The position numbers and the translations under genes are program-made. A DNA stretch of 30,659 nt from positions 1 through 30,659 of the forward strand of contig JBGART010000083.1 in the NCBI GenBank assembly GCA_044230055.1, written 5' to 3'. The notes under the pieces were generated by a model that was given only the letters and a program-made list of their open reading frames with translations, had not been told where the DNA came from and did no database searches. Of this stretch, positions 9,292-26,129 are shown one piece after another; position 1 is the stretch's first letter; the number at the start of each line of letters is the position of its first letter. The DNA is from Myxococcaceae bacterium. GTDB lineage: Bacteria > Myxococcota > Myxococcia > Myxococcales > Myxococcaceae.

Positions 9292-9299
9292 GGTCCGTC

Positions 9300-11612
9300 T
9301 CAGTAGAACTGCAGGTACTGCACGGGAGAGGCGCTCGCCGAGGCGCGCTTGGGCAGAGACGGCAGGATGATGAGCGCCGCCTTCAGGAGTGCAGAGATGC
9401 GATCGTTGTCGATGCCGCGCAGCACCGCCTGGAACAACCCCAGCGCGTTGCGGGTGGTCTGAGGGAACGTGCGGAGGTCAAACGGGAAGGTGACGCTCTC
9501 CGGAGAGGACTGGCTGCGGACGTACGCCTCCATCCCCGCGCCCTCCTGCCGCTCCTTCAGCGCCGGGAAGATGAGCTCGCGCAGGAAGACGATGTCCTCG
9601 CCAAAGTCGATGGCCTCGTCCACCACCAGCGAGGCGAACATGAACGCCGAGAGCAAGGCCTCCCGCCGCTGCGCGCGCTCGTCAAGGCACTCGGCGCCGC
9701 TGAGCATCGCGGCGAAGGCCTCGGTAGGTAGGACGAAGGTGTCGAACTTGTAGTTGAAGATGTCCTCCATCGTCCGGCGGCCGGCGGCGGGCGGGAGGTG
9801 GCCGTGCTCCGCCTTGAACCAGGCGGAGTACATCACGCGGGTTTTTCCCTCGAGGTAGCGCTGGGCCTCGGGTCCGAACGGCGACGCGGCCTTCTCCCGC
9901 GCGAAGATGCTGGCCCACATCGCGCTCTCGTCATGGCTCCAGAGGTGGCGCTGAAATTCCCCCTCGCTGAGCGGGCGGCCCTGAAGCCGCAGGTCCTCGC
10001 GGAAGGAGCGGTCATCCACCACGCGGTCCAACATCACCATGAGGTTCCAGGAGGACGTGAACAGCCCCAGGCCGCCTCTTGCTGCGACGGATTCGAAGGA
10101 GTCCCCGGAGAGCATGCAGTACGCCCAGAGCGTCATCTTCACCGGCAAGCGCCGGTCATGCCGTTCGCCGATGACCGGATACTCGTCGCTCCACGAGCGC
10201 AGCCAGTCCTCCGTCCAGCGCGTGTACTGCCGGTCAAACTCGCGCAGGCTGCGCAGGACGCCGGGAATCTGCGTGAGCTCCGGCAGCGAGAGGGGCAGCT
10301 CATCCCGCATCTCACCCAGGCAGCCCATCAGCGGTTCCACCCGCGTGGTGGCGTAGGCGCGAAGCTCCTCGCGTGAGACCTCCGCCGGCTCGAACCGGCC
10401 GTGGCCCTGGCCCTCGTACGGGGAGCGCGGCGCGAAGAGCTGGAGCGGCTCCGTTGGAAAGACCGTGAAGCTCAACGGGAAGCGCTTGAGGCTGCCCAGA
10501 AGGTGCCGCACCGCGGACCCGCCCTCGCGCAGCCCCTGGAGCGCGGCGGCGAACCGGCCCGGCCGCGGGCGGCGGTGGGCGGCCTGCAGCGCCGGTGCGG
10601 CGCTTGAGCCAGGCTGGAACGCCTCGTCCTCCGGCAGGAGCAGCCGCGCCACCTTGTGGAGCTCCTGGAACGCCACCGTGTCGTTGCGCTCCGACTCCAG
10701 CAGGACGAGTGCCTCCCGGCCGTAGGACTGCGCCAGCTGCTCGCAGTACGCGGGAGCGCCCGAGTCGGCGATGAGGCGCAGGGCGCGCTGGAGCTCCGCC
10801 TCCTCGAGCACCGGCCGCTGCAGCAGCGCCTGCAGCTCCGCCGAGCGCTCAAGCGCGTAGAGCACCGGCAGCGTGCGCTTGCGCCGGACGAGGTCGCTCA
10901 CGCCCTGCTTCTGCAGCTGCTCGACCCGGAAGAGGCCCAGCGCGTCGTCGCGAATCTGGAAAGCCATACCCAAAAGCCGGCCAAAGCGACGCCACTTGTC
11001 AGCGTCTCCGCCCGCCAGCACCGCGCCCGCCTCGGTGGCCGCGCCGAACAACGCCGCAGTCTTGCCTGAGATGAGCTTCATGTATTCGAGGATAGAGACG
11101 TCCTCGCGGCGCTCGTTGCGCAGGTCCTGATACTGGCCCTCGCAGAGCTCCACTCCAGCGGCCTGCAGGATGCGCAGCAGCCGGAGCGCGGTGCGGGGGT
11201 CTACCCCGCGGGCCTCCACCTCCAGCGCCGCGAGGTTGGCCAGCGCGTGCATGCCGTCGCCGGTGTTGATGCCGTGGTTGAGCCCCCAGACTTTCCACAG
11301 CGTGGGATGCCCGCGCCGCACCTCATCCCCGTCCTCGATGTCGTCATGCACGAGCGAGAAGTTGTGCAACAGCTCGATGGACGCAGCCATCGGCAGGGCC
11401 TGCGCGCGCTGTCCCTCCAGCGCTTCGCAGGTGAGCAGGCACAGGGCGGCGCGGTAGCGCTTTCCTCTCCTGCCCGAGCCCGACGCCGGCTCCGCGCCCG
11501 ACCAACCCAGGTGGTAGCGCATCATGTCGTAGAACGCGCCGGTCTGGCTCCGCGAGTCGATGACACGGCGAATCTCCGCGTCCACCAGCGGACCGCACTC
11601 ATTCAGGGTCAT
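9300..11612 (-). CDS. Fusion protein: N-terminal trans-polyprenyl diphosphate synthase (FPP/GGPP synthase family, ~340 aa) + ~430-aa C-terminal domain of unknown function (possibly isoprenoid-synthase-like).
   Basis: First Asp-rich motif LVHDDIEDGDEVRRGHPT and second FQIRDDALG, with KT..LF and GKTAAL elements typical of polyprenyl synthetases. The C-terminal half contains DRVVDDRSFRED and LGLFQAVLRGIDNDRIS, weakly reminiscent of squalene/phytoene-synthase Asp-rich motifs (speculative). Confidence 0.75.
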   Translation of the reverse strand: MTLNECGPLVDAEIRRVIDSRSQTGAFYDMMRYHLGWSGAEPASGSGRRGKRYRAALCLLTCEALEGQRAQALPMAASIELLHNFSLVHDDIEDGDEVRRGHPTLWKVWGLNHGINTGDGMHALANLAALEVEARGVDPRTALRLLRILQAAGVELCEGQYQDLRNERREDVSILEYMKLISGKTAALFGAATEAGAVLAGGDADKWRRFGRLLGMAFQIRDDALGLFRVEQLQKQGVSDLVRRKRTLPVLYALERSAELQALLQRPVLEEAELQRALRLIADSGAPAYCEQLAQSYGREALVLLESERNDTVAFQELHKVARLLLPEDEAFQPGSSAAPALQAAHRRPRPGRFAAALQGLREGGSAVRHLLGSLKRFPLSFTVFPTEPLQLFAPRSPYEGQGHGRFEPAEVSREELRAYATTRVEPLMGCLGEMRDELPLSLPELTQIPGVLRSLREFDRQYTRWTEDWLRSWSDEYPVIGERHDRRLPVKMTLWAYCMLSGDSFESVAARGGLGLFTSSWNLMVMLDRVVDDRSFREDLRLQGRPLSEGEFQRHLWSHDESAMWASIFAREKAASPFGPEAQRYLEGKTRVMYSAWFKAEHGHLPPAAGRRTMEDIFNYKFDTFVLPTEAFAAMLSGAECLDERAQRREALLSAFMFASLVVDEAIDFGEDIVFLRELIFPALKERQEGAGMEAYVRSQSSPESVTFPFDLRTFPQTTRNALGLFQAVLRGIDNDRISALLKAALIILPSLPKRASASASPVQYLQFY

Positions 11613-12598: not shown

Positions 12599-13762
12599 TT
12601 AGAAGTAGAGCCGAATCTGCAGGTGCCCCATCCTCGGGACCGAGCCGAGCTCACCCGCGCCGACGCTTACCATCCCTCCCGCGGCGACGGTGGTGTTCTG
12701 GTCAAAGCTCCACTCCAGCTCTGGCACCACCAGGCCAGAGCCGTCCGTCAGGTTGGCGATGACCACCAGGTTCGCCGTGAGCAGCGCGCCCAGCTCGTAG
12801 CTGACGGCCGCGCCCGCGTAGAAGCGCCCGACCAGGGCCAGCTCCCCCGACTGCCAATCCAGGCGGCGCCGGACGTCTGCGTAGCCGGCGGGCGTCAGCG
12901 CACCGGCGCGGCTGTAGTGCAGCTCCGCGGTGACGGTGAGCCCCGGCCGCAGCGTGTGCTGCGCGCCGACGGTGGCCCGCAGCAGCGGAATGCGCGAGGG
13001 CGGCTCCTCCACTTCTGAGCCGTCCTGCCGCGCCCGCCAGAACCCCTCCGCGTAGAGCGACGCGCCGCCCACGTCCCCGGAGACATCCACTGCCACCGCC
13101 GGCGACGTGCCGGAGACGCCGGCGTACGCCGCGAGGTCCACGCCCGGGACGCTCACCCGGGCGCGGCCCAGCAGCGCGCCCTGGCTCAGGTAGCGGCGGT
13201 GGCCCACCGCGTACACCTCCAGCTCCACCTGCTCGCCCACCGGCGCAGTCAACCGCACCGCGTCCACGCCGGTCTTGAACTCCCGGTCCAGCGCTGCGGG
13301 GTGGAACGGCGCGAAGAGGTCCGACGCGGCGAACAGCCGCGCGCTGCCGTGGCCCAGCGCCTGACGCCCCACCCGCAGCGTCGCCGCCCCCACCGCGAGC
13401 GTCAGCATCAAGCGGTCCAGGTTCTGGTCCAGCGCGAAGCTGGAGGTGCGCACAATCTGCCGTGGCGCATCCACCAGCCGCAGGGCGGTGTGAACCGAAG
13501 GCGCTGCTTGCAGCGGGAAGACCGCCGACTGGAGCGCGTAGGCCAGCTCGAACGCGCCGTCCTCGCCGCTGACTTTGAGCTCCGCGCGCAGGCCCTGCTC
13601 CACCGCAGCCTGCGCCGGCGCGTCCGGCCCCGCGGGCGCGAGGTAGAGCGTGAGCACCTTGAGCCGCCCGCCGAAGGTGGCGGTGCGCTCGGCCCCTGAG
13701 AGCTCGAACGCGAAGGCGGCCCGGGACGCGAGCAGCAGCGCGAGCCACGCGGCCCGCCTCAT
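12599..13762 (-). CDS. Outer-membrane beta-barrel protein (signal peptide, C-terminal aromatic residue), last gene of the export operon.
   Basis: MRRAAWLALLLASRAAFA signal. Alternating amphipathic beta-strand pattern. C-terminal ...HLQIRLYF. The start overlaps the stop of the upstream ABC ATPase gene. Confidence 0.6.
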   Translation of the reverse strand: MRRAAWLALLLASRAAFAFELSGAERTATFGGRLKVLTLYLAPAGPDAPAQAAVEQGLRAELKVSGEDGAFELAYALQSAVFPLQAAPSVHTALRLVDAPRQIVRTSSFALDQNLDRLMLTLAVGAATLRVGRQALGHGSARLFAASDLFAPFHPAALDREFKTGVDAVRLTAPVGEQVELEVYAVGHRRYLSQGALLGRARVSVPGVDLAAYAGVSGTSPAVAVDVSGDVGGASLYAEGFWRARQDGSEVEEPPSRIPLLRATVGAQHTLRPGLTVTAELHYSRAGALTPAGYADVRRRLDWQSGELALVGRFYAGAAVSYELGALLTANLVVIANLTDGSGLVVPELEWSFDQNTTVAAGGMVSVGAGELGSVPRMGHLQIRLYF

Positions 13763-14472
13763 CGCCGCTCGTCTGCCTCAACCCTCCCGTCGTGGAGCGT
13801 CACCCGCCGGGACGCGGCGGCCATCACCCGCGGGTCGTGCGTGGAGAAGATGAACGTCGTCCCCAGGCGCCGGTTGAGGTCCACCATCATCTCCACGAGC
13901 GCATCCCCGGTCTTGCTGTCGAGGTTGGCGGTGGGCTCATCCGCCAGCACCAGCGCGGGCTTCGGGGCGATGGCACGCGCCACCGCCACGCGCTGCTGCT
14001 GCCCGCCGGAGAGCTCGTTCGGACGGCGGTGCAGCTTGTCGCCCAGCCCCACCTGCTCCAGCGCGTGCGAGGCGCGCTCCCTCCGCTCCTTCTTCTTCAC
14101 GCCCTGAATCCACATCACGTACTCCACGTTCTCCAGGACGCTCATCACCGGCACCAGGTTGTAGGCCTGGAAGACAAAGCCGATGCGGTCTCTCCGCAGC
14201 AGGCTGAGCGCGCTCTCCGGCAGGCGGGTGAGGTCCTTCCCCTCGAGGACGACGGCGCCCTCACCCGGGCGGTCCAGCGCACCCACCAGGTGCAGCAGCG
14301 TGGACTTGCCGGAGCCCGAGGGGCCGGCGATGGCCACCAGCTCCCCCGGCGCCACCCGGAGCGACACCCCGTTGAGGGCCCGGACGGTCTCGCTGCGCGA
14401 GGTGTAGTGGCGGCTGACGTCCCGAAGCTCGACGACGTTCTGCGGGGCGACCATGACGGCTCCCTCCTCCAT
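13759..14472 (-). CDS. ABC transporter ATP-binding protein (LolD/MacB-NBD/FtsE-like).
   Basis: Walker A GPSGSGKST, ABC signature LSGGQQQRVAVARA, Walker B LVLADEPTANLD, H-loop THD. ATG at 14472 overlaps the permease stop (ATGA). Confidence 0.85.
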   Translation of the reverse strand: MEEGAVMVAPQNVVELRDVSRHYTSRSETVRALNGVSLRVAPGELVAIAGPSGSGKSTLLHLVGALDRPGEGAVVLEGKDLTRLPESALSLLRRDRIGFVFQAYNLVPVMSVLENVEYVMWIQGVKKKERRERASHALEQVGLGDKLHRRPNELSGGQQQRVAVARAIAPKPALVLADEPTANLDSKTGDALVEMMVDLNRRLGTTFIFSTHDPRVMAAASRRVTLHDGRVEADERR

Positions 14473-15698
14473 CAAGCGGGATTGAGCGCTTCCACCGGCC
14501 GCAGGCGCGCGGCCCGCACCGCGGCGAAGAGCCCGGTGAGCGCGGTGAGGCCGGCGAACAGCGGCGCCAGCGTGAGCGCGTGCGCGGCCTTCGGCCGGAA
14601 CAGGATGGCGTCCTTCACGTAGACGCCGGAGAACTCCATGCCTTCGATGGGCATGCCCCAAATGGCGAACGGCGCACACAGCGCGAAACCCAGCGCGCAG
14701 CCGGCCGCCGCCCCCAACAGGCCCAGCGCGGTGGACTCGCACAGCAGCAGCGCAGCCAGCCGCGCGGGCGAGGTGCCCAACGCGCGCAGGACACCGAGCT
14801 CGCGCAGCCGCTCCGCGAAGGACATCCGCAGGGTGTTGACGATGGAGAAGCTCGCCACACCGAAGACGGCCAGCGCCAGCAGGTAGATGAGGTTGCGCTG
14901 GAACTGGTACGCGGTCCACAGGAGCGCGTTGAGACGCTGCCACGGCGCCACCTCCACGTCCGGACCCAGCGCCCCGCTCAAGGGCAGCAGCGCAGCGTCC
15001 AGCACCGCCGGGTCCGTGTTGGGCCCCGCAAGCTTCAGCGCCACCTCGTGCAGCTCCCCGCCCTGCCCGCTCAAGGCGCCGGCCTGCGGGAGCGAGGTGA
15101 CGACGGCCTCGCGGTCCAGCAGCGCGTTTCCAGAGGCGATGAGGCCGCTCACCCTCACCAGAACGCTGCGCAGCTCGCCGGTGCGCGCGTCCGCCGCGGT
15201 GAGCACCAGCTTGTCGCCCACGCCCAGCTCCAACCGGGTGGCCAGCTCATGCCCCAGGAGCGCCTGGCCCTCACGGACCGGCCAGCTGCCGTGGAGCAGC
15301 TTCCGGTGGAAGAGCGTCACCTTCGGCTCCTCGGCAAGGTCCACGCCGATAACCTGCACGTTGGCGCTGCGGTCTCCCATCGCCGCCAGCGCCAGCACGT
15401 ACTGCCGCGGCGCCGCGGCGAGCACGCCCGGCGTGGCGCGGGCAGCTTCCAGCGCGCGGGGCCCGTCCGGAAGAACCCGCTCCTGCTCGCGCTCGGCGCG
15501 GTAGGCGCGATGGTGCAGCTGCGCGTCGCCCAGAAAACCTCCGGCGGAGACCTCCACCGCCTGGACGAAGAGCCCCTCGATGTAGCCGAGCAGGAAGAGG
15601 AAGAGCGCCAGGCCCAGGCCAATGGCGGACGCGGTGAGCAGCGTGCGCTGCCGCTGCCGCCACAGGTTGCGGAAGGCGAGCGTGAACATCCAGAGCAT
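14472..15698 (-). CDS. FtsX-family ABC permease (LolC/LolE/MacB-like, four TM with large periplasmic domain).
   Basis: N-terminal LAFRNLWRQRQRTLLTASAIGLGLALFLF and C-terminal FtsX block ...VASFSIVNTLRMSFAERLRELGVLRALGTSPARLAALLL... Confidence 0.8.
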   Translation of the reverse strand: MLWMFTLAFRNLWRQRQRTLLTASAIGLGLALFLFLLGYIEGLFVQAVEVSAGGFLGDAQLHHRAYRAEREQERVLPDGPRALEAARATPGVLAAAPRQYVLALAAMGDRSANVQVIGVDLAEEPKVTLFHRKLLHGSWPVREGQALLGHELATRLELGVGDKLVLTAADARTGELRSVLVRVSGLIASGNALLDREAVVTSLPQAGALSGQGGELHEVALKLAGPNTDPAVLDAALLPLSGALGPDVEVAPWQRLNALLWTAYQFQRNLIYLLALAVFGVASFSIVNTLRMSFAERLRELGVLRALGTSPARLAALLLCESTALGLLGAAAGCALGFALCAPFAIWGMPIEGMEFSGVYVKDAILFRPKAAHALTLAPLFAGLTALTGLFAAVRAARLRPVEALNPA

Positions 15699-15703
15699 GG
15701 GGC

Positions 15704-16903
15704 CTACGTCTCCTTCATCGCGTGAAGCGGAGTCAGCCGCGCGGCGCGGAGCGCGGGCCAGAGGCTGGCGAGCAGCCCGCCTACCAGCAGCACCAGCGGA
15801 TAGAGGAGGTTCCCCTCCGCGGTGGCCAGCCCCTGCACGGTGTGGAAGACGACGCCGGCAATCTCCATCGGCTCATCGCCTATCGGAACTTGAAGGCCAT
15901 TCATCGCGGTGCCCAGGAGCGCGCCCACCGTCACGCCTCCGGCCGTGAGGAAGAAGGCCTCCCAGAGGATGAGGCCCACCACCTGGCGGGGTGAAGTCCC
16001 TAGCGCACGCAGGATGCCCAGCTCGCGCGTCCGCTCGAAGACGGACATCAGCAGCGTGTTGACCACGCCCACCGCGATGATGGCCAGGAAGATGACCACG
16101 CCTGGCCGGTTCGCGCCGCGCTCGGTCCGGATGTAGTTGGCCAGCGCAGGCATCACCTCCGGCCAGCCCTGCAGCCGGTGTCCCTGCACCGAGGGCAGGC
16201 GCGTGAGGAAGGCCTCCAGCGCCGTGGGCTCATGCAGCCGGCCCACCACCCGGTGCGCGCGGTCCGGCAGCTCCAGGAGCTCTCGGGCGTCGGCCAGGGT
16301 CACGAAGGCCAGCGCGCTGTCCGCCTCGTCGGAGCCGGAGGTGTAGACGCCGCGGACGCGGAACAGCTGCGCCGCGACGGCGCCGTCCGCGGCCTGACCG
16401 AGGAAGCTCACCTCGTCCCCCACCTTCACGCGCAGCCGCGCGGCCACGCCGCGGCCTAAAAGGATGTCCGCGCCGGCGCCGGGCGTCAGCCACGCGCCCT
16501 CCTTCACCGCGGCGGGGATGCGCGTCACCTCCGGCTCGCGCACCGCGTCCACGCCGATGAGGCGGACGCCGACAGACCTGTGGCCGGCGGAGACCAGCCC
16601 GGGCGCCTCCACCCGCTCGGTCACCGCGCGGACCTCGGGCGCCTCCCGCAGCGCCTGCGCCACGGCGCCCGCGCCGCGCACCGTCTTGTTCACGCCCGGG
16701 CGCGCGTTGAAGTCGCCCGCCATCACCTGGAAGTGACCGTGAAAGCCCTGCGTCACCCCGTCGGTCAGCAGCGCGAAGCTGCCCTCGTTGACGCCGTTTA
16801 TCCACACCAGAAAGGCGGTGCCCAGCACCACCATCGCCACGGTGAACGCCGAGCGGCGGGTGTTGCGGCGCAGGTTGCGCAGCGCCAGCCCTGCGGTCGC
16901 CAT
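15704..16903 (-). CDS. FtsX-family ABC permease (second LolC/E-like paralogue).
   Basis: MATAGLALRNLRRNTRRSAFTVAMVVLGTAFLV... and C-terminal ...VGVVNTLLMSVFERTRELGILRALGTSPRQVVGLIL... The ORF-track ORF (to 17374) over-extends; ATG at 16903 abuts the upstream gene stop. Confidence 0.8.
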   Translation of the reverse strand: MATAGLALRNLRRNTRRSAFTVAMVVLGTAFLVWINGVNEGSFALLTDGVTQGFHGHFQVMAGDFNARPGVNKTVRGAGAVAQALREAPEVRAVTERVEAPGLVSAGHRSVGVRLIGVDAVREPEVTRIPAAVKEGAWLTPGAGADILLGRGVAARLRVKVGDEVSFLGQAADGAVAAQLFRVRGVYTSGSDEADSALAFVTLADARELLELPDRAHRVVGRLHEPTALEAFLTRLPSVQGHRLQGWPEVMPALANYIRTERGANRPGVVIFLAIIAVGVVNTLLMSVFERTRELGILRALGTSPRQVVGLILWEAFFLTAGGVTVGALLGTAMNGLQVPIGDEPMEIAGVVFHTVQGLATAEGNLLYPLVLLVGGLLASLWPALRAARLTPLHAMKET

Positions 16904-17649
16904 CACCCGCCCCCGGAGGTGAGCGCGGAGAGCGTGAAGAGGGACTCGCTGGCCGGCGTGTCGAACTCCAGCGTGTCGTAGAGGAGCGTCGTCTGGTGGC
17001 CCTGCTTCGTGAGCGGCGTGACCACCAGCTTGTGCGGCGTGAGCCGCTCCCCCACCTTCCTCACGTCGGAGAACGTCAGGCGGCGCGCCAGGCGGCCCTT
17101 GTCGTCGTGGTACTCGCAGGTGACCGGGACCAGCGTCCGCGCGTCCACGCAGGCCACCACCCGCTCCCAGGCGACCGCGGCGTCCGGCCGGGCCTTGAGC
17201 TCCACGCAGGTCTGCCCTTCGGGCGCGGATGGGAGGGTGGTCCCCTCGTAGTCGACGCTGTACTTCACCGCCTGGACGAGGTCGTCGTGGGTGAAGTCGC
17301 TCCCCATCCAGGAGCTCATCAACATCGAGGGCGGGATGCGCACCGTCTTGCCAATCTTCGGCAGGTAGTTCCACATCTGGGCGCCCTTCTTCAGGCTGGC
17401 AGTGCCGCTCTCCTTCTTCGGCGCCAGAATCCTCACCAGCGCGTCATCCGCGCCGCGCGACCAGAAGTCCAGGCTGAGCTCGCGCTGGAAGTCCGGCGCC
17501 TGCACCTGCATGCGCATCCGGCCGTGGCTGGTCCGGGACCGGAACAGCTCATCCAGCCGCGCGCTCACCGCCTTCGCCTTCTCATCCGGCGCCGCCTGCG
17601 CCGCGACGCCCGCCACCAGCAGCGCCAGCACCCATCCCCGGCTCCTCAT
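16903..17649 (-). CDS. Periplasmic LolA-like / outer-membrane lipoprotein-sorting (DUF-type) protein commonly partnered with FtsX/ABC exporters.
   Basis: Signal peptide MRSRGWVLALLVAGVAAQA; ~230-aa beta-rich soluble protein; conserved partner position. The start ATG overlaps the TfuA stop (ATGA). Confidence 0.6.
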   Translation of the reverse strand: MRSRGWVLALLVAGVAAQAAPDEKAKAVSARLDELFRSRTSHGRMRMQVQAPDFQRELSLDFWSRGADDALVRILAPKKESGTASLKKGAQMWNYLPKIGKTVRIPPSMLMSSWMGSDFTHDDLVQAVKYSVDYEGTTLPSAPEGQTCVELKARPDAAVAWERVVACVDARTLVPVTCEYHDDKGRLARRLTFSDVRKVGERLTPHKLVVTPLTKQGHQTTLLYDTLEFDTPASESLFTLSALTSGGG

Positions 17650-18977
17650 CCGTTCGCCCCTCCGTACTCGCGCAGCAGCTCCTCCAGCAGCGCCTCACCG
17701 CTCTCGAACCCCAGCTCCCGCGCGTGCAATTCGACGGACCCGCCGACGGTCCGCACCTGCCGCTGGTAGGTCTCCAGCGCGCGCGCCAGTCGCCGCTCCC
17801 GCGCTCCAGGCTCCTCGGCCGCGGGTGCCGGGCGCTCGCGCAGGTGCGCAAGCGTGCGCCCGAACGTCCCGCGCCGCTTGAGCTCCTGCGACAGCAGCTG
17901 CGCCAGCCGCCCCTCGCCGCGCAGCGCCGCCTGTACCTTGTCGAAGAGCACCTCGAAACGCAGGACTTCGCGCAAGCCCGCGCCCGACAGCTGATTCTCC
18001 TCCAGCCAGCGCCGCGTGGCCTGCGCGCTCACCAGGCCTCGCGCCCGACGGAAGCGCTCACCGGCCGCCGCCACCTCCTGCTCGCTGACGGCAAGCCCCC
18101 TCGCCGCCGCCTCCAGCTCCAGCAGCTGGAGCAGCACCGTCGAGCGCAACAGCTCCTCGCCCTCCGGCCGCACGCGCACGCCCCGCCAAAGCGCCGCCGC
18201 ATCCACGTCTGCAGACGGCGCGTCCGGCAACGCGAGCTGCTCCGGTGAGGTGGAGCGGACCAGCTTGTGCCAGAAGCGCGTCTGCTCGAAGTGAAAGCCC
18301 GGCGCGGGCGCCAGCGCCGGCAACCCTTCAGCGAGCCGCTGCAACAGCGCCACCGCGTCGCTCCGCTTGAGGTTCGGCCGGTGGGCGAGGACGAAGGCGC
18401 GCAGCCGCGCGCGCTCCGCACCCGGGATGGCCAGCGCTTCGCCCAGCCCCTCGCTCCACAGCGCGGGCCAGCTGCGCTCCGGGTAGTGCAGCCCCTTCGC
18501 CGCCTGCTCCAGCAGCGTCCGCGTCCGGGCGGAGATGTCTCCGGCCTGCTCCGCCAGCCGCAGCCCATCCCGCAGGTTGACCATCGCGTCGGAGAGCGGC
18601 ACGTAGCCGTCCTCCGCGGGGCCGTGGACCACGGTCACCTCGTCGTCGTCCTCCAGCACCCCGTCGCGGTAGGCCTCGAAGATGCGCCCCACGCCCTCCA
18701 TCCCGAAGGCACAGAGCTCCGCGGCGCGCAGCGCCCCCATGCTGGAGGCCCCCAGTACGCGCACGCCGCTGGCCAGCGCGAAGAGCAGCTCCTTGTGCCA
18801 GACCGCCGGGCGCTGTTCAAAGAAGCCGTCGATGAGCGCGATGACGGACGGCTTGCGCGTGGCCACCAGCTGGTAGACGTCCCCCATCGCCGCTGGGGGC
18901 AGGAAGTGGGCCGTGGGGAGCAGGGCCTTCGCCTCGACGGGCGGCAGGGAAGGACCCAGGAAAACCCAGACGCTCAC
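17646..18977 (-). CDS. TfuA-like protein (YcaO partner for peptide backbone thioamidation) with ~200-aa C-terminal extension.
   Basis: N-terminus (M)SVWVFLGPSLPPVEAKALLPTAHFLPPAAMGDVYQL...IALIDGFFEQRPAVWHKELLFALASGVRVLGASSMGALRAAEL...GVGRIFEAYRDGVLEDDDEVTVVHGP, a near-textbook TfuA domain. GTG start overlaps the YcaO stop. Confidence 0.8.
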   Translation of the reverse strand: MSVWVFLGPSLPPVEAKALLPTAHFLPPAAMGDVYQLVATRKPSVIALIDGFFEQRPAVWHKELLFALASGVRVLGASSMGALRAAELCAFGMEGVGRIFEAYRDGVLEDDDEVTVVHGPAEDGYVPLSDAMVNLRDGLRLAEQAGDISARTRTLLEQAAKGLHYPERSWPALWSEGLGEALAIPGAERARLRAFVLAHRPNLKRSDAVALLQRLAEGLPALAPAPGFHFEQTRFWHKLVRSTSPEQLALPDAPSADVDAAALWRGVRVRPEGEELLRSTVLLQLLELEAAARGLAVSEQEVAAAGERFRRARGLVSAQATRRWLEENQLSGAGLREVLRFEVLFDKVQAALRGEGRLAQLLSQELKRRGTFGRTLAHLRERPAPAAEEPGARERRLARALETYQRQVRTVGGSVELHARELGFESGEALLEELLREYGGANG

Positions 18978-20209
18978 GCGCGCGCCTCCTGCGTTGCGGA
19001 GGCCTTGAGGTATGCGTTGACGCGTGGGCCCGGCTGGTAGTCGCTGGCGAAGAGCCGCGCCTCCAGCCCCGGGACCACTACCTTCACCACGGGCACCTTC
19101 AGCTCCGGCCGGGAGAGGTTCACCACCGCTGCTTGCGCCAGGCCGATGCGCCGCAGCGCCTGCACGAGGACCTGGAGGTCTCCCTCGAAGGTGTCCGTCG
19201 CCAGGCTGGCGCGCGCGCGGAACGCGGCGGCCGGCGCCGGGGTGCGGATGCGCTCAATGCGGGCGGCCAGGGCGGCGTCACGCGTCCAGGCGCGGTACTT
19301 CGAGTAGAAGAGGTCATCCCGGCTCCCGGAGACGAAGGCCAGCCGGCTCTGCACCGCTTCGCTGAGCGCGCGCATCAGCGCCACCGCGGGGGAGAGGTGA
19401 CAGCCGTAGCCTCCGAAGATGCCCAACCTCCGCCAGCGCGGCCGGTCGGATCCGTCGAAGAGCTCGCAGGCGTACGCCGGGATGCCGGTGTCCGAGGTGA
19501 CGTCCCAGATACCCACGTCGACGTCCGCCAGCCGCATGCGGCGCAGCAGCTCCAGACAGCCGGCGTCATCCACCGTCGCCGGGTCCACCTGCCGCGTCTT
19601 CGCTTCCTCGGCGCTCTGGTACTCCCAGAGCGTGATGGCGTCCCGCTCGATGAGCTCGCACAGGCCGTGGACGGTGGCCTCCACCAGGTGATTGCCAGAG
19701 GCCAGCCCGTTGCTGGAGGGCGGCACGACCGGGCGGTAGCCCGCAGGCCAGACGAAGCTGACGCTCACCGCGTCGTGCGGCACCCAAACGGACTCGCCGC
19801 GCAGGAGGTCCTCTCCCTCCACCCAGAGGCAAGGGCCGGCTTGGGGACCCAGCCCCAGCTCCAGCACCCGGGAGGACTTCGCCAGCAGCGCAGGCTGTTC
19901 GTGCCGCAAGGGCAGCGCCAGGTGTTCGCCGTGCCAGACCTCGATGGACTCCATCAGGGCGGACACCTTGGCGGCGAGAGGGTCCAACCCCTTCCCCTGC
20001 GACGTCGCCAGCGAGCGCGAGTTGGGCCGCACCGCCACGTAGACGGGCAAGCCAATCCGGTCCAACCCCGTCACGTTCGCCAGCCGCGTGATGCCCAGCG
20101 GGCCCATCAGCGGCGAGAAGCGCGCGAAGGTCTCCTCCGGGCTGCACGCGCGGTGCGTCCCGTTGAGGAAGCGCTTGGGCGGATGCGGTGGCTCGCCCCA
20201 GAGGTTCAT
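18974..20209 (-). CDS. YcaO-domain protein (ATP-dependent peptide backbone amide activation: cyclodehydratase/thioamidase type).
   Basis: LNGTHRACSPEETFARFSPLMGPLGITRLANVTGLDRIGLPVYVAVRP...LCELIERDAITLWEY (YcaO ATP/Mg-binding ExxERD-type motifs). ATG overlaps the stop of the upstream HO-like gene. Confidence 0.85.
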   Translation of the reverse strand: MNLWGEPPHPPKRFLNGTHRACSPEETFARFSPLMGPLGITRLANVTGLDRIGLPVYVAVRPNSRSLATSQGKGLDPLAAKVSALMESIEVWHGEHLALPLRHEQPALLAKSSRVLELGLGPQAGPCLWVEGEDLLRGESVWVPHDAVSVSFVWPAGYRPVVPPSSNGLASGNHLVEATVHGLCELIERDAITLWEYQSAEEAKTRQVDPATVDDAGCLELLRRMRLADVDVGIWDVTSDTGIPAYACELFDGSDRPRWRRLGIFGGYGCHLSPAVALMRALSEAVQSRLAFVSGSRDDLFYSKYRAWTRDAALAARIERIRTPAPAAAFRARASLATDTFEGDLQVLVQALRRIGLAQAAVVNLSRPELKVPVVKVVVPGLEARLFASDYQPGPRVNAYLKASATQEARA

Positions 20210-20928
20210 GCGGTCTGCCGGTAGACGTCGTGACCCATCCGCCCCCAGGTCTCCAGGGTGGCGCGCGCGTGGAGCAACACCGCCTCCTGGTCCGCCGGGT
20301 CCGTGAAGCCGCGCAGCCGCCGCCGGGCCGCGTCCATGTGACCCACGTCCGACTCCGCGTGGCCGCCGAAGAAGCTCACCGCGTTGCGGATGTTGGGGAG
20401 CTGCGAGTGGGCGATGAGGTTCTTCACAATCCGTCCCGCCACCTTCTCCCCGAGCGACTCCAACACGTAGGCAATGCCCCAGACGCCCACCGGCGTGGGA
20501 CTGAGCGCGGCCGCCCAGAACATGGCGATGTACGCTTTGGCCGCCGGGCCGGGCTGGCTGCGCTCCAGCGCCTCGCGGGAGACGCCCAGCTCACCCAGGT
20601 CCGAGGCCAGCCACGCGTCATGCCCGGACTCTTCGTCACCGTGCGCGGCCAGCTCCTTCGCCATCTGCTGGAGGTAGGGCGTCTTGAAGCGCGCCCAGCG
20701 CGCGTCCGCGAAGCGCGCATCGTCGCTGCCGTAGAGCCGCATGGACTCGCCGGCGGCGCGGAGCATGGCGGGGACGTGCTTGGCGCCCTGGCGAATCTCG
20801 TCATAGATGCCGATGAGCTGCGCGCGCGTGGGCGTGCCGCGCAGGAGCGGCCCGAAGACCGGGTCCTCCTCCAGCTGGGCCGCCAGCTGCGCGCTCAGCG
20901 CTTCCAGCTGTTCAATCAAGTCGCTCAT
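20206..20928 (-). CDS. Haem-oxygenase-like di-iron enzyme / 'iron-containing redox enzyme family' (TenA/PqqC/CADD-like fold) protein.
   Basis: ~240 aa, all-helical. Recurring E/H/D ligand pattern (...DEESGHDAW..., ...FFGGHAESDVGHMD...). Family assignment is from memory of this protein family and is less certain than YcaO/TfuA. Confidence 0.55.
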   Translation of the reverse strand: MSDLIEQLEALSAQLAAQLEEDPVFGPLLRGTPTRAQLIGIYDEIRQGAKHVPAMLRAAGESMRLYGSDDARFADARWARFKTPYLQQMAKELAAHGDEESGHDAWLASDLGELGVSREALERSQPGPAAKAYIAMFWAAALSPTPVGVWGIAYVLESLGEKVAGRIVKNLIAHSQLPNIRNAVSFFGGHAESDVGHMDAARRRLRGFTDPADQEAVLLHARATLETWGRMGHDVYRQTA

Positions 20929-21010
20929 GGTGTTTCGCCTTCGGGTGACGGGTGGCTTCGAAGCACGGCGCGGGCGACGTGGAGCTCGCCCGCGCCATGC
21001 CGCTACAGGC

Positions 21011-21148
21011 GTCAGTCGTTGATGAGACAAGCGTTGCCAATCAGGCACGCGTCGCCCACCGGGTCGCTGCTGATGAGGCAGGCCGACTCGGCCTTGCTCT
21101 CACCGGCGAGCTCTTCCGCCGTCTTCACGTCGAGATCCTTGATGTCCA
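21011..21148 (-). CDS. Candidate RiPP precursor peptide, 45 aa: MDIKDLDVKTAEELAGESKAESACLISSDPVGDACLIGNACLIND. Acidic helical leader + core with three ACLI repeats.
   Basis: Found by hand translation of the 270-bp gap between the terpene synthase and the HO-like gene. ATG at 21148 is preceded by AGAGAGGAGGGGAAGAGAAAAA (GGAGG RBS). GC3-rich codons are consistent with host usage. TGA stop at 21011-21013. Not in the ORF track (too short). Confidence 0.65.
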
Positions 21149-21200
21149 TTTTTTCTCTTCCCCTCCTCTCTTGGGCCAGGGTCGTCACGGGTGGCCGCCC

Positions 21201-22106
21201 TCAAGAGAACAGGGCACCGGGGACGGTGTCGAAGCGAGCCGTTGCCCATCGGCCCCAGTCGTAAGAACCGCGCATGATGTGTCGCAAGACCTCGGTGAGC
21301 CGTCGGACCGCGGCGTCCGCGGCGCCGCCGAAGCGGGGCAGCGCCTTCTCCCGCTCCAGGAAGAGCTCCACCAATCCATTGGAGACGCGGGCCACCCCCT
21401 CCAGCGCCCGCGTAGAAGAGCAGCCGCGCTCCGCCTTGAGCATCCGCACCACGTTGTTCTCCCGGCAGGTGTCCGGTTTCATGGAGAAGGCCAGCACGTC
21501 GCTGGTGAGCCGCACTGCCAACGCGGCCAGCCGCTTGAGCCGCGCGAGCGCCGGGTGACACCGCAGCTGCGGCGGCACGTCGATGCCCTTGAGCACCTCG
21601 ACAATCCAGACGCAGGGATAGATGGCCACCGCGGACGCCTCCATCTCCAGGTACTGCGCGAAGGACGGGACGCGGGACAGCCGCCGGTTCTCCGCCTCCC
21701 AGCGCCACGAGTCCTGCATCTCCTCCACCAGCACATCGAACTCCTCGAGCGCTGGCCGCTCGCAGAACGTCCCCAGCCGCTGGCGGAGGTCGCCGAAGGC
21801 GGCCCCCAATGCCGCGTCCATCACCCGGGGCTGCCTCGCGCACGACGTCCCATCACAACGGGCGTCGATGGCGAAGACCCAGGCCAGGTAGTCCGCGAGG
21901 AGCTGGAGCCGCTCCGTGGGACCGTCGGGGTACATCATCCCCCCGAGCACATGGACCGCGAACCGGTCGAACTCCCCGACTGCTCCGGCGTCGAGCACGC
22001 CCATCTGTTCCAGCCATTGCAGCATCGGCTGGCGGGTGTGCTCACACCGGACGTTGGACGCAGGCGGGAAGGGATAGAAGAGGTCTGGAAGGCGCGCCGT
22101 CTGCAC
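21201..22106 (-). CDS. Class I terpene synthase (bacterial terpene cyclase family) with degenerate first metal-binding motif. The start is uncertain (GTG 22106, or upstream 22220 overlapping the neighbouring gene).
   Basis: LPDLFYPFPPASNVRCEHTRQPMLQWLEQMGVL...LADYLAWVFAIDARCD aligns with the ...ADYSAWFFVWDDRHD region of bacterial cyclases; here the DDxxD motif is D-A-R-C-D. An NSE-like region RENNVVRMLKAE lies ~135 aa later, and the C-terminus has a W...R(F) motif. Confidence 0.65.
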   Translation of the reverse strand: MQTARLPDLFYPFPPASNVRCEHTRQPMLQWLEQMGVLDAGAVGEFDRFAVHVLGGMMYPDGPTERLQLLADYLAWVFAIDARCDGTSCARQPRVMDAALGAAFGDLRQRLGTFCERPALEEFDVLVEEMQDSWRWEAENRRLSRVPSFAQYLEMEASAVAIYPCVWIVEVLKGIDVPPQLRCHPALARLKRLAALAVRLTSDVLAFSMKPDTCRENNVVRMLKAERGCSSTRALEGVARVSNGLVELFLEREKALPRFGGAADAAVRRLTEVLRHIMRGSYDWGRWATARFDTVPGALFS

Positions 22107-22125
22107 GGGTTCCTGACCTCGCCCG

Positions 22126-22593
22126 CTACTGGCGGCGTCCCCAACCGGTGAAGTTGACGTCCTTGTTGCCCACGCTGACGAAGCGGATTTCCCGCCCGCC
22201 GTCGTCGAGCACGAACTCAATCTTCGAGGCTTCGCCCTCGGCGGTGATGCAGTCCATCTTGCCGAGGCCGCCGCGGCGCAGCTCGTACTTGCAGACGAAC
22301 GCCTCGCGGGCGCTCTGGCCGCCGGGCGCGCTGATGACGAACTCGCCCGTCACGCGGCTGATGCCGTCCGCGTGCAGCCGCCCAATCTCGAAGATGCGGG
22401 CGCCGTTGGCGAGGACACCCTCCACCGAGACGCCGTAGGCGCCCTTGAGGTCATGCGGCTTGAAACAGTCGTTGGCGTTGTTGTTGAGCGCCTGCGTCTG
22501 GGCGGACAGCTCCTCGCCAGGCGTGGCCGCCATCAACAGGGCAGCGAGGGGAACCAGGACGGCCACCGAGGACAGCGCATAGAGCTTCTTCAT
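22126..22593 (-). CDS. Secreted hypothetical protein (~155 aa, signal peptide, beta-rich; calycin/nitrobindin-like guess only).
   Basis: ATG 22593 gives MKKLYALSSVAVLVPLAALLMAATPGEEL... The ORF track's longer version uses an upstream alternative start. Confidence 0.5.
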   Translation of the reverse strand: MKKLYALSSVAVLVPLAALLMAATPGEELSAQTQALNNNANDCFKPHDLKGAYGVSVEGVLANGARIFEIGRLHADGISRVTGEFVISAPGGQSAREAFVCKYELRRGGLGKMDCITAEGEASKIEFVLDDGGREIRFVSVGNKDVNFTGWGRRQ

Positions 22594-22639: not shown

Positions 22640-24139
22640 TCACTGGAATGTCTGAACAGAGCGCCCGCTGGGGAGCGACGTCGGGATGAGCTGCCTGAGC
22701 CGGACGGGGCTGGCGCGTGGGTCCGCCAGGCCGTTGGAGACGAACGCCACCAGCGCGTTGAGCTCCGCGTTGGTGAGCGACACCGGCTGACCCATGCGGG
22801 AGTCCAGCGTGGTGAGGACAATCTCGTTGACCGGGGTCTGGTTTCGGCAGTCCGAGGGCAGGCCCAGCTTGTTGAACTTATGCAGCGAGTCGTGGACATC
22901 CAGGTGGTGCCGAATGGCGCCCGCCAGGCTGTCGAACGCGCCGTTGTGGAAGTAACGCGGGCTGTAGGCCAGGTTGCGCAGCGGCGAGGTCCGGAACTTG
23001 TAGCGGTCCGCGGCGGTCCCGCTGACCTGCTCCAGCCCGAAGTCCTCATTGCCGCCGGGCCCATCCCAGGTCACGTTGGTGAGCGAGGGGAAGACCGGCG
23101 GGACGCCGATGTTGTGCTGGGCGAAGTCGCTGAACATCTCGTTCGCCTCACCCGAGACCGCATGGCAGCCAACGCAGCCCGCCTTGCCGAAAAAGAGCAG
23201 CGCGCCGCGCTTCTCCTGCTGGGTGAGCGCGTTCTCGTGGCCGCGGGCGAAGCGGTCAATGGGCGCGTTCGCGTACGTCTGGCTGAGCTCGAACTCGGCG
23301 ATGGCCGCCGCCAGCATCTCGTACGTGATGGGGCCGCCGTGCTTGACGATGGAGTAGACCCGGCCGAACAACTTCCGGTACTCCGCGTTGTTGTTCAGCC
23401 GGGCGATGACGTCGGTCCGGACGACGTCGTGGTCGGTGGAGGCGTTCAGCCCGGCCATCTCCGGCAGCTCCGTCGGCGGTATGAAGGCCTGTGCCGTGAG
23501 CAGCGTGGGCATGGCGTCCAGCGAAGAGCCCTCCGGCGAGGGGAAGAGGAAGCCCTGGCTGTTGTCGAACGGGTCCCCGGACTTGGCGGCGAACCGCGAG
23601 TTCCACATCAGCGTCGGGTAGAACGCGTTGTTGGCGATGCCCGGCGCGCGGCGCTGGTTGCGCGGGCCGACGCGGGAGCTCCCCACCTTCTGGTTGTTGT
23701 CGATGCCAATGGCGATGGCCTGCGAGTCACCCCACCCCGCGGTGGGCGCGTGACAGCCGGAGCAGGAGTTGTCGTCCTTGAGCGCCAGCAGACTGTCGAA
23801 GAAGGCCAGCCGTCCCACGTTGGCCAGGTTCGCGTTCAGCTTCCTGCCCAACCGCGGCTCCAGGGTGGCTTGAACCCGCCCGGTGAAGCCGTACTGCTTA
23901 AGGATGACCTTCAAGGCGACGTCGAGCGGGTCCTTGGCGCGCGCGTTGGAGCGGTCCCGCCCAGGCGCCTCGTGCGCCTCTCCGTCGGTCAGCGCTTCGG
24001 GGAGCAGGTCCAGCTGGGCCAGCTCCGCGCTGAGGGCGTCGCTGTCCTCTGACAGCTCGTCCGGCGCCTGCAGGCCCGGGCCGCAGCCCGCCGTCAGCAT
24101 GGCCGCGAAGAGCGCGGCGGTGGTTTTGAATTGAGACAT
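22640..24139 (-). CDS. Di-haem cytochrome c peroxidase (CCP/MauG family), lipoprotein.
   Basis: Two CxxCH haem motifs (CSGCH, CVGCH); lipobox LTAGCG; ~500 aa, typical of the family. Confidence 0.8.
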   Translation of the reverse strand: MSQFKTTAALFAAMLTAGCGPGLQAPDELSEDSDALSAELAQLDLLPEALTDGEAHEAPGRDRSNARAKDPLDVALKVILKQYGFTGRVQATLEPRLGRKLNANLANVGRLAFFDSLLALKDDNSCSGCHAPTAGWGDSQAIAIGIDNNQKVGSSRVGPRNQRRAPGIANNAFYPTLMWNSRFAAKSGDPFDNSQGFLFPSPEGSSLDAMPTLLTAQAFIPPTELPEMAGLNASTDHDVVRTDVIARLNNNAEYRKLFGRVYSIVKHGGPITYEMLAAAIAEFELSQTYANAPIDRFARGHENALTQQEKRGALLFFGKAGCVGCHAVSGEANEMFSDFAQHNIGVPPVFPSLTNVTWDGPGGNEDFGLEQVSGTAADRYKFRTSPLRNLAYSPRYFHNGAFDSLAGAIRHHLDVHDSLHKFNKLGLPSDCRNQTPVNEIVLTTLDSRMGQPVSLTNAELNALVAFVSNGLADPRASPVRLRQLIPTSLPSGRSVQTFQ

Positions 24140-24764: not shown

Positions 24765-26129
24765 CTACTGCCCAGACCCCACGGCGCCGAGCTCCGCCCC
24801 ACCCAGCTCGCGCAAGAGCTCTCGCGCCCGCTCCACCTTCACGTGGCCCACCTTCACCAGCAGGTCCGCCACCTTCTCCACCCAGTCGCCACGCGCGCCG
24901 GCGGTGACGGCGACGCAGCGGGCGTGCAGCGCCATGTGCCCCTGCTGGATGCCGACGGAGCCCAGCGCCCGCAGCGCGGCGAAGTTCTGCGCCAGGCCGA
25001 CCGCGGCGAAGACCATCGCCAGCTCGCGGGCGCTCTGCGCACCGAGCAGCTTGAGGCCAACCTGGACGCCCGGGTGGGCCTGGATGCTGCCGCCCACCAT
25101 GCCCAACGCGAGCGGCAGCTCGAGCTCCCCCACCAGCGAGTCACCGTCCAGCCGCCAGGTGGAGAGCGGCCGGTAGCAGCCCGTCCTGCTCGCGAAGGCA
25201 TGCGCTCCGGCCTCGATGGCGCGCCAGTCCTGCCCCGTGGCCAGCGCCACCGCGTCAATGCCATTCATGACGCCCTTGTTGTGGGTGGCCGCGCGGTAGG
25301 GGTCCGCCTGCGCGAAGCGGCTGGCCTGCACCACACCCCGGGCAATCTCCTCTCCCGACCGTTCGAAGGCGGCCAGGTCCCGCACGGGAATCTGGCAGCG
25401 GGCGCGGGCCAGCCGGCGGTCCGCGTAGTTGGAGAGGATGCGCAGGTGCACCTCGCCACCCGTGAGCGCCTCCACCAGCGGGGCCACGCCCTCGGACATC
25501 GTGTTGATGAGGTTCGCGCCCATCGCCTCCTGCGTGTCGATGAGCAGGTGCACGATGAGCAAAGGCTCCGCGTCCGGCCCCTCCGGCGCGGGGAGGATGC
25601 GGACCTCCACGTCCTTCGCGCCGCCCCCGCGCTGCACCATCCGGGGATGGAAGCTGTTGGCCAGCGCCAGCAGCTCCTCGCGCGCGGACAGCAGGCGTTC
25701 GCGGGCGGCCAAAGGGTCTCCGTAGCTGGAGACCTGCACCTGGCCAATCATGAGGGAGGCGTCGGCCTCCGCGACGAAGCCGCCCGCGGCGCGCACCACC
25801 TTCGCCGCCAGCGAGACCGCGGCGATGACCGAGGGCTCCTCCACCACCATCGGGACGACGTACTCCCGGCCGTTGACGATGAAGTTGAGGCCCAGGCCCA
25901 GCGGCAGGCTGAAGGTGCCCAGGGCGTTCTCAATCATCTGGTTCGCCACCTCCGCGCCGAGCGAGCGCTCTCCGGAGAGCTGCTGCAACTCAACAGGCGT
26001 GAGGCGAAACATCCGGCCGACGCGCGCCAAACGCTCCGCGCGGTCGAGCTTGTGAAATCCCTTCATACGAGATGTCACAGCACCGGCGACGCCATTCTTG
26101 TCTTCAGACATGACTTCGCCCCGCTCCAT
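24765..26129 (-). CDS. Class II HMG-CoA reductase (mevalonate pathway).
   Basis: ...EVANQMIENALGTFSLPLGLGLNFIVNGREYVVPMVVEEPSVIAA..., ...DTQEAMGANLINTM..., ...ATHNKGVMNGIDAVALATGQDWRAIEAGAHA... (conserved class II HMGR blocks). Confidence 0.85.
   Translation of the reverse strand: MERGEVMSEDKNGVAGAVTSRMKGFHKLDRAERLARVGRMFRLTPVELQQLSGERSLGAEVANQMIENALGTFSLPLGLGLNFIVNGREYVVPMVVEEPSVIAAVSLAAKVVRAAGGFVAEADASLMIGQVQVSSYGDPLAARERLLSAREELLALANSFHPRMVQRGGGAKDVEVRILPAPEGPDAEPLLIVHLLIDTQEAMGANLINTMSEGVAPLVEALTGGEVHLRILSNYADRRLARARCQIPVRDLAAFERSGEEIARGVVQASRFAQADPYRAATHNKGVMNGIDAVALATGQDWRAIEAGAHAFASRTGCYRPLSTWRLDGDSLVGELELPLALGMVGGSIQAHPGVQVGLKLLGAQSARELAMVFAAVGLAQNFAALRALGSVGIQQGHMALHARCVAVTAGARGDWVEKVADLLVKVGHVKVERARELLRELGGAELGAVGSGQ

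Follow-up and report, generated by a model that had tools for sequence, protein, structure and literature searches.

The operon and its precursor gene

The locus described here lies in a 30,659-nt stretch of DNA from a Myxococcaceae bacterium (contig JBGART010000083.1 of GenBank assembly GCA_044230055.1), referred to below as the window. On its minus strand, five co-directional genes encode a terpene-synthase-like protein, a 45-aa peptide, a haem-oxygenase-like di-iron oxidase (HDO), a YcaO protein and a TfuA protein (Table 1). A preliminary description of this DNA had proposed such a set with overlapping stop and start codons. All five genes are present as drawn there, with an ATGA overlap between the HDO and YcaO genes and a GTGA overlap between the YcaO and TfuA genes, and profile searches placed the three enzymes in the families anticipated for them (PF07812, PF02624 and PF14518). 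The genes and positions given in that description hold after two minor adjustments: the ATG of the peptide gene lies at 21149 instead of 21148, and the gap between the synthase-like and peptide genes is 51 nt instead of 52 bp. Its view of the locus as a gene cluster for a peptide made by ribosomes and modified after translation (RiPP) is supported by a precursor conserved beside the HDO, YcaO and TfuA genes.

The peptide gene has a ribosome-binding site (GAGAGGAGGGG) upstream of its ATG and lies 83 nt upstream of the HDO gene. Its product comprises a leader, MDIKDLDVKTAEELAGESKAES, containing the motif DLDVKTAEEL, and a core of three A-C-L-I units. These units are written in differing codons (GCC TGC CTC ATC; GCG TGC CTG ATT; GCT TGT CTC ATC), which indicates that selection acts on the peptide sequence rather than on a repeat in the DNA. 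At about 70 % G+C the window carries, as a consequence, many long spurious open reading frames (ORFs); a six-frame scan found the repeat and the leader motif together in only one, the 45-aa peptide. The G+C content at third codon positions is 0.87 in the precursor gene and 0.88–0.93 in its neighbours. Although the peptide has no match among Pfam or NCBIfam models, repeat peptides occupy the equivalent position at five other loci (L001, L085, L166, L168 and L170). The small ORF, whose absence from orthologous loci had been named as the sign of a spurious prediction, is thus kept beside orthologous HDO, YcaO and TfuA genes. Judged from these sequence features, the 45-aa ORF is a real gene for a conserved putative precursor.

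A hairpin after the precursor gene is common in RiPP operons, which need more precursor transcript than enzyme transcript. In the window, the 91-nt stretch that follows the precursor stop has a folding energy of -42.6 kcal/mol (z -3.15), unmatched by any of 200 shuffled sequences. Hairpins of unrelated sequence stand at the matching place in L001 (325-361), L166 (746-788; also in L168) and L170 (9908-9946). L085 has none, since only 7 nt separate the stop of its peptide gene from the start of the YcaO gene. The stem-loop in the window is probably an mRNA-stabilising or attenuating element.

Table 1 Features of the window and their coordinates
Feature	Coordinates	Strand	Evidence
Terpene-synthase-fold gene, 301 aa	21201..22106 (GTG start 22106 by gene caller; ORF extends to 22220)	-	PF19086, E 8e-24
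Precursor peptide gene, 45 aa	21012..21149	-	MDIKDLDVKTAEELAGESKAESACLISSDPVGDACLIGNACLIND; ribosome-binding site, repeats, homologues
Stem-loop after precursor stop	20962..21001	-	16-bp G+C-rich stem
HDO, 240 aa	20206..20928	-	PF14518, E 4e-13
YcaO, 411 aa, TfuA-partnered type	18974..20209	-	PF02624, E 5e-74, full model covered
TfuA, long form, 443 aa	17646..18977	-	PF07812, E 1e-45
LolA-like periplasmic carrier, 248 aa, signal peptide	16903..17649	-	PF17131, E 1e-43
MacB/LolCE-type ABC transporter	13759..16906	-	Pfam matches
FtsX/MacB_PCD permeases (two)	16906..15704 and 15698..14472	-	Pfam
ABC ATPase	14472/14454..13759	-	Pfam
Secreted protein, 387 aa	12599..13762	-	signal peptide MRRAAWLALLLASRAAFA, C-terminal ...IRLYF
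HMG-CoA reductase	26129..24765		

The translationally coupled chain runs on past the genes first described. The TfuA gene overlaps a LolA-like gene (ATGA), which overlaps the first of two FtsX/MacB-type permease genes (GTGATG). An ABC ATPase gene comes next, with starts and stops overlapping or near-abutting throughout, and overlaps a gene for a 387-aa protein (ATGA). The 387-aa protein has no Pfam, NCBIfam or PDB match; its signal peptide and C-terminus suggest that it is probably an outer-membrane β-barrel. This LolA-like, two-permease, ATPase and outer-membrane set probably exports a hydrophobic product. A scan for sigma-70 promoters returned zero sites and is uninformative for this organism.

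Related loci and the repeat family

Relatives were gathered by HDO searches and by YcaO searches combined with context look-ups. The word-index HDO search returned three relatives only; L085, L166 and L170 were missed by it and were recovered by YcaO search and context. Across the five other precursor-bearing loci, the HDO is 42–59 % and/or the YcaO 52–59 % identical to that in the window. L001, with an HDO 59 % identical, encodes the peptide MEANNRDLQVKSAQELCEELASSESACLVSDACLIESACLISDACLITDV. L166 and L168 (YcaO 55 %, HDO 44 %) encode MDGAFEIHDLKVSSAAELVAGANVSPQS(ACFVET)3-4...VQ, L170, a Myxococcales metagenome-assembled genome (YcaO 54 %, HDO 46 %), encodes MFKIEDLRVQDAETIIAGEARGAETAGFISGAES(AGFVES)3AGFIAAE, and L085 (YcaO 52 %, HDO 47 %) encodes a peptide ending in ...DDGAALVESAALIESAAFIESAALIESAAFVESAALIESAG.

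Aligning these peptides defines a hexapeptide core unit, A-[C/A/G]-[L/F]-[I/V]-x-x, present in three to six copies (three in the window). The invariant positions are Ala1, Leu/Phe3 and Ile/Val4. Position 2 is Cys in the window, L001 and L166/L168, Ala in all six units of L085 and Gly in all five units of L170, from which it follows that the modification defining the family needs no thiol. The comparative data thus point to Ala1, Leu/Phe3 and Ile/Val4 as the residues that matter, and not to the Cys. A leader motif, DLxVxxxx(E/T)(L/I), is found in four of the five family peptides and is missing from L085. The metagenome contigs L166 (595-738) and L168 (485-646) encode an identical YcaO protein beside peptides of three and four ACFVET units, respectively. 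This suggests that the equivalent cores form a cassette, an arrangement known from thiovarsolins and cyanobactins.

Two gene orders occur in the family. The window has peptide-HDO-YcaO-TfuA, as do L001 and L165 where visible; L085, L166-168 and L170 have peptide-YcaO-TfuA-HDO, and L002 has YcaO-TfuA-HDO with its upstream flank missing. Wherever the HDO is at least 42 % identical and flanking sequence is retained, the locus also encodes a TfuA, a YcaO of the TfuA type and/or a repeat peptide. More distant HDO relatives (22–40 % identical) were found at about 160 genome and metagenome loci with no adjacent YcaO or TfuA, except at L140; these loci, lacking YcaO and TfuA, are uninformative on the peptide and were set aside as a test of it. 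An exhaustive profile search of 1.84 billion cluster representatives gave 896 HDO relatives, among which family-level HDOs amount to one full-length protein (329 bits) and three fragments. The next tier begins at 174 bits with P0130, a metagenomic protein of 229 aa in a context without YcaO or TfuA.

The YcaO clade is large, with 6316 matches below 1e-40, and YcaOs 51–56 % identical to that of the window also serve other precursor types without an HDO (L171-L174). At L173 (2071-2792), small ORFs stand three in a row, with cores rich in Cys, Ser and Thr (for example, ...LKWACVCSTTCKCTSSSCAGWSFSGDA), upstream of a YcaO-TfuA pair; the YcaO there is 55 % identical to that of the window. The precursor family differs there and the YcaO clade is shared; two of the three tandem precursors carry the leader motif DLQIxxxEEL. 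A motif common to these and the window-type precursors would fit a shared recognition element.

At L172 (2431-5693) and L174 (7138-12938), a YcaO-TfuA pair stands beside a Gly/Ala-rich hydrophobic peptide of about 52 aa (MARQIGLGMGVGMAIG...), a periplasmic protein of about 220 aa and two FtsX permeases; this module recurs and is similar to the LolA-like/FtsX set in the window. At L140 (3253-5528), a YcaO (36 % identical) and a TfuA (43 %) are transcribed divergently from genes for a 66-aa peptide lacking repeats and for an HDO only about 23–29 % identical, which may be an independent pairing of an HDO with YcaO and TfuA.

Predicted chemistry and competing explanations

TfuA-partnered YcaOs, as in the McrA, thioamitide, thioamidated thiopeptide and thiovarsolin systems, carry out an ATP-dependent exchange of backbone oxygen for sulfur. 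The best NCBIfam model for the YcaO of the window is TIGR03266, the McrA-Gly thioamidation YcaO (223 bits, compared with 130 bits for SagD/TOMM), and its best solved relative is Methanocaldococcus jannaschii MJ1094 (PDB 6PE3), matched over its full length. The cyclodehydratases TruD, LynD and MusD match the C-terminal half only (residues 163-383 for TruD and LynD). The TfuA domain (residues 3-216) matches NF033432, a TfuA model of the McrA type, at 199 bits and the TfuA structure PDB 6XP8 with E 4e-38. The YcaO is thus nearer to thioamide-forming than to azoline-forming enzymes and the TfuA domain matches both a family model and a solved structure, in agreement with the earlier suggestion that the pair points to backbone thioamidation.

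Beyond this domain, the TfuA carries a helical C-terminal extension of about 225 aa (residues ~215-443; 17646-18335, minus strand) with weak similarity to SurA_N_3 (0.002) and, at E 1.2e-7, to TIGR04500 ('PpiC-related putative peptide maturation protein'). Single-sequence AlphaFold modelling of the extension gave a pLDDT of 44, too low to be of use. The TfuAs of L165, L166, L170 and L171 share the extension; L002 and L085 have short TfuAs that lack it. It might be the leader-binding element of these systems.

The preliminary description had placed its emphasis on the Cys residues of the core. We consider it unlikely that the operon makes an azoline- or azole-containing RiPP, in which the YcaO would form thiazolines from the three Cys by cyclodehydration and the HDO would convert these to thiazoles by oxidation. 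The Cys at unit position 2 in the window, L001 and L166/L168, the capacity of YcaO enzymes for azoline formation and the partial SagD/TOMM match would accommodate such a route. The same enzyme set, however, accompanies Ala in L085 and Gly in L170, the YcaO is related over its full length to thioamide-forming enzymes, and its partner is a TfuA and not an E1-like/Ocin-ThiF protein. Pfam scans of the long ORFs in the window found no E1-like/ThiF partner, no RiPP recognition element and no flavin mononucleotide (FMN) dehydrogenase of the kind expected for azole formation. Cys-centred chemistry was rejected as the family-defining step since Cys is not conserved.

The third enzyme is a member of the haem-oxygenase-like di-iron class, as had been proposed. 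Its residues E99, H103, E157, H190, D194 and H197 align with the metal ligands of CADD, which we take to be E81, H88, E142, H174, D178 and H181 in the numbering of that protein. They form a complete set of three His and three carboxylate di-metal ligands and are invariant in eight family members. An AlphaFold2 model of the HDO (pLDDT 91.3) superimposes with template-modelling scores of 0.74–0.78 on 3DDE, CADD and UndA in Foldseek, with BesC among the nearest folds; its structural neighbours include CADD, UndA, BesC, HrmI and PolF.

A precedent exists for the whole enzyme set. In Streptomyces varsoviensis, the repeating precursor varA, the YcaO gene varY, the TfuA gene varT and varO, which encodes a 229-aa protein listed as PF14518 in Table S2 of that study, are necessary and sufficient for production of thiovarsolins (PMC6511847). 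These are N-acetylated Ala/Gly-Pro-Arg tripeptides with a thioamide between Pro and Arg; loss of VarO abolishes the double bond between Cβ and Cγ of Arg, and the conserved accessory genes varL and varS, for an ATP-grasp ligase and an amidinotransferase, are dispensable (PMC6511847). The preliminary description was aware of no described class that joins YcaO/TfuA to a haem-oxygenase-like oxidase; varAYTO is exactly this combination (Santos-Aberturas 2019, PMC6511847). The 229-aa protein P0130 was considered as a candidate VarO and rejected as an unrelated metagenomic protein.

We regard it as likely that the operon directs the synthesis of a thioamidated RiPP on a multi-copy core by a thiovarsolin-like pathway. 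The 45-aa precursor would be translated in excess over the enzymes, a step with which the hairpin after its stop is consistent. Its DLxVxxxxEL leader would be recognised by the YcaO and TfuA; the PpiC/SurA-like domain at the C-terminus of the long TfuA may mediate this. The YcaO would then activate a backbone amide with ATP in each A-[C/A/G]-[L/F]-[I/V] unit and TfuA would supply sulfide, giving one thioamide per unit. The HDO most likely carries out an O2-dependent oxidation of a side chain within the unit; the analogy with VarO makes desaturation the favoured reaction. The product would leave the cell through the co-transcribed LolA-like/MacB-type/outer-membrane module, either intact or after host peptidases had cut it into several short thioamidated peptides.

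Several points weigh against this pathway. The thioamide and the oxidation are predicted here from gene content, and the YcaO and TfuA scores do not reach the NCBIfam equivalog cut-offs, set with the archaeal McrA system in mind. The HDO is a putative counterpart of VarO, likened to it by PF14518 membership, size and cluster context, and the core has no Arg, the substrate residue of VarO. L085 has neither the DLxV leader motif nor the hairpin, no protease is encoded, and the difference in repeat number between L166 and L168 could be a short-read assembly collapse of the tandem repeat.

The points concerning VarO feed a second explanation, that the peptide is thioamidated and the HDO is not a peptide-tailoring enzyme of the VarO kind. 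It might make a small-molecule cofactor or a sulfur-related metabolite, or perform an unprecedented backbone or C-C cleavage in place of desaturation. HDO chemistry is indeed diverse, as the structural neighbours illustrate, the core lacks the Arg on which VarO acts, and the enzyme is only a putative orthologue of VarO. We nonetheless hold this to be improbable: the HDO clade occurs only with TfuA-type YcaOs and repeat peptides, in two gene orders, the HDO is translationally coupled to the YcaO in the window, and the next HDO tier, headed by P0130, sits in an unrelated context.

A third explanation concerns the terpene-synthase-fold protein, for which the preliminary description had entertained a peptide-terpenoid hybrid product. 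The protein would prenylate the Cys thiol or the thioamide sulfur, giving a product with an isoprenoid, or would bind the peptide non-catalytically. Its position favours this: the gene is co-directional with the precursor and directly upstream of it, and in L001, the only close relative with a visible upstream flank, the C-terminus of an orthologue (...LMRASYDWGRWATTRY...) is encoded 29 nt upstream of the precursor gene. HMG-CoA reductase and polyprenyl synthase genes are also in the window, and an uncharacterised antiSMASH 'Terpene/TfuA-related' cluster has been recorded in Vitiosangium cumulatum (PMC7321100).

The protein itself departs from ordinary terpene synthases. Its Asp-rich motif reads DARCD, compared with DDQCD, DDVCE and DDAFCE in three solved sesquiterpene synthases, and its NSE triad reads SDVLAFSMK against NDVLSYPKE, NDIYSLRKE and NDLLSYAKE, so that N/S/E has become S/A/K and all three Mg-B ligands are replaced. 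RF takes the place of the C-terminal RY. A word-indexed search of 5.8 billion proteins returned only the query, with no close homologue. The atypical metal motifs might mean that the protein is no ordinary cyclase, which would suit a new role, but the loss of the NSE triad and the change from DDxxD to DAxxD argue against diphosphate ionisation. The synthase gene is not near the cluster in L085, L166-L168 or L170, Cys-bearing cores exist without it (L166), and a literature search gave no terpene-synthase-fold enzyme acting on a RiPP. The hybrid is accordingly unsupported by the other family loci and by the degenerate motifs, and we think it doubtful. Equally doubtful is the narrower proposal that a synthase fold without its Mg triad, kept upstream of the precursor in both visible loci of the subclade, has been recruited to a thioamidated Cys peptide for S-prenylation or as a scaffold; if true, it would provide the first example of a terpene-synthase-fold enzyme tailoring a RiPP.

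Other affiliations are open to this gene. Directly upstream of it, in the same direction and after a gap of 19 nt, is a gene for a 155-aa secreted protein of unknown family (22126-22593, minus strand), itself preceded after 46 nt by a gene for a di-haem cytochrome c peroxidase/MauG-family protein (22640-24139, minus strand). Given these short gaps, the synthase gene may belong to the MauG-family/155-aa transcript instead of the RiPP operon. The protein may lack activity, may be an unrelated neighbour or may represent something new, and it is uncertain whether the gene is an accessory member of the cluster or a neighbour.

A further isoprenoid-related pair lies downstream in the window. The first gene (9300-11612, minus strand) encodes a 770-aa protein with an N-terminal polyprenyl synthase and a C-terminal part of about 445 aa that has no family match. 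For the synthase part, the best NCBIfam match, 'family 2 encapsulin cargo polyprenyl transferase', scores 252 bits and so stays under the cut-off. The next gene encodes an amine-oxidase/phytoene-desaturase-like flavoprotein (7909-9291, minus strand). Together these (7909-11612) may form a separate isoprenoid module.

By far the least probable explanation is that the small ORF is spurious and that the YcaO, TfuA and HDO modify a larger protein, as the archaeal pair does McrA: long spurious ORFs abound in this DNA and the peptide matches no model, but its codon usage is gene-like and its position, leader motif, repeat unit and hairpin are conserved where the enzymes are only 42–59 % identical, so that the comparative data effectively refute this explanation and the spurious ORF was rejected.

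Relation to known thioamidation pathways

The operon represents an uncharacterised, conserved and very rare family of probably thioamidated RiPPs, a thiovarsolin relative in which the enzyme combination is already known. With essentially one full-length representative in 1.84 billion, the family is so rare that its product is likely to be new chemistry. Within Myxococcota it would be the first family of thioamidated RiPPs to be defined, and among pathways that combine YcaO/TfuA with a haem-oxygenase-like di-iron oxidase it would be only the second. Because the core has no arginine, the residue targeted by the oxidase would differ from that of VarO, making the family a second test case for HDO action on peptides. 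The PpiC/SurA-like domain of the long TfuA may bear on substrate recognition by TfuA-type YcaOs, and interest in the locus would grow if the synthase-like protein or the HDO performs new peptide chemistry.

A global survey puts the number of TfuA-related cluster families at 613 and that of precursor families at 797; it mentions haem-oxygenase-like genes in Sinorhizobium TfuA clusters and includes Myxococcales entries in its tables, none of them described there (PMC8120280). Repeat strings of the present family had no matches in the accessible supplements of Malit et al. 2021, where Myxococcales TfuA entries are listed, a result that is not evidence of absence.

The thiovarsolin cluster is the closest known system. 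Both loci combine a repeating precursor with a YcaO, a TfuA and a PF14518 protein (229 aa in VarO, 240 aa in the window), both do without a dedicated protease, and in both the repeat number varies among relatives. They differ in the core, which in thiovarsolins is a 17-aa unit with APR/GPR, whereas the hexapeptide A-[C/A/G]-[L/F]-[I/V] unit has no Pro-Arg. Thiovarsolins come from Actinobacteria and are associated with a major facilitator superfamily (MFS) pump; the window belongs to Myxococcota and has a LolA/MacB-type exporter. The window also differs in its gene order (A-O-Y-T), its long TfuA with an extra domain and its terpene-synthase-like neighbour. Pfam scans of its long ORFs found no ATP-grasp ligase or amidinotransferase of the varL and varS type.

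The archaeal McrA pair (MJ1094, 6PE3; TfuA, 6XP8) provides the best solved relatives and the best NCBIfam models, and the expected chemistry is the same, an ATP-dependent conversion of amide to thioamide. Its substrate is a 60-kDa enzyme, whereas that in the window would be a small leader-bearing peptide, and the window TfuA has a C-terminal extension and scores below the equivalog cut-offs. Thioamitides (of the thioviridamide/thioholgamide type) and thioamidated thiopeptides resemble the predicted product in being ribosomal peptides whose backbone thioamides, perhaps several per peptide, depend on YcaO and TfuA. The precursor is unrelated, and the thioamitide tailoring set (HopA1-like/phosphotransferase, aminovinylcysteine (AviCys) decarboxylase and methyltransferase) was not found in the window by Pfam scans. 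Among haem-oxygenase-like enzymes, CADD, UndA, BesC, SznF and HrmI have the same fold and the same E/H/E/H/D/H ligands as the window HDO at about 12–22 % identity; their substrates are free small molecules or, for CADD, residues of the protein itself, whereas for the window HDO a peptide substrate is predicted, as proposed for VarO.

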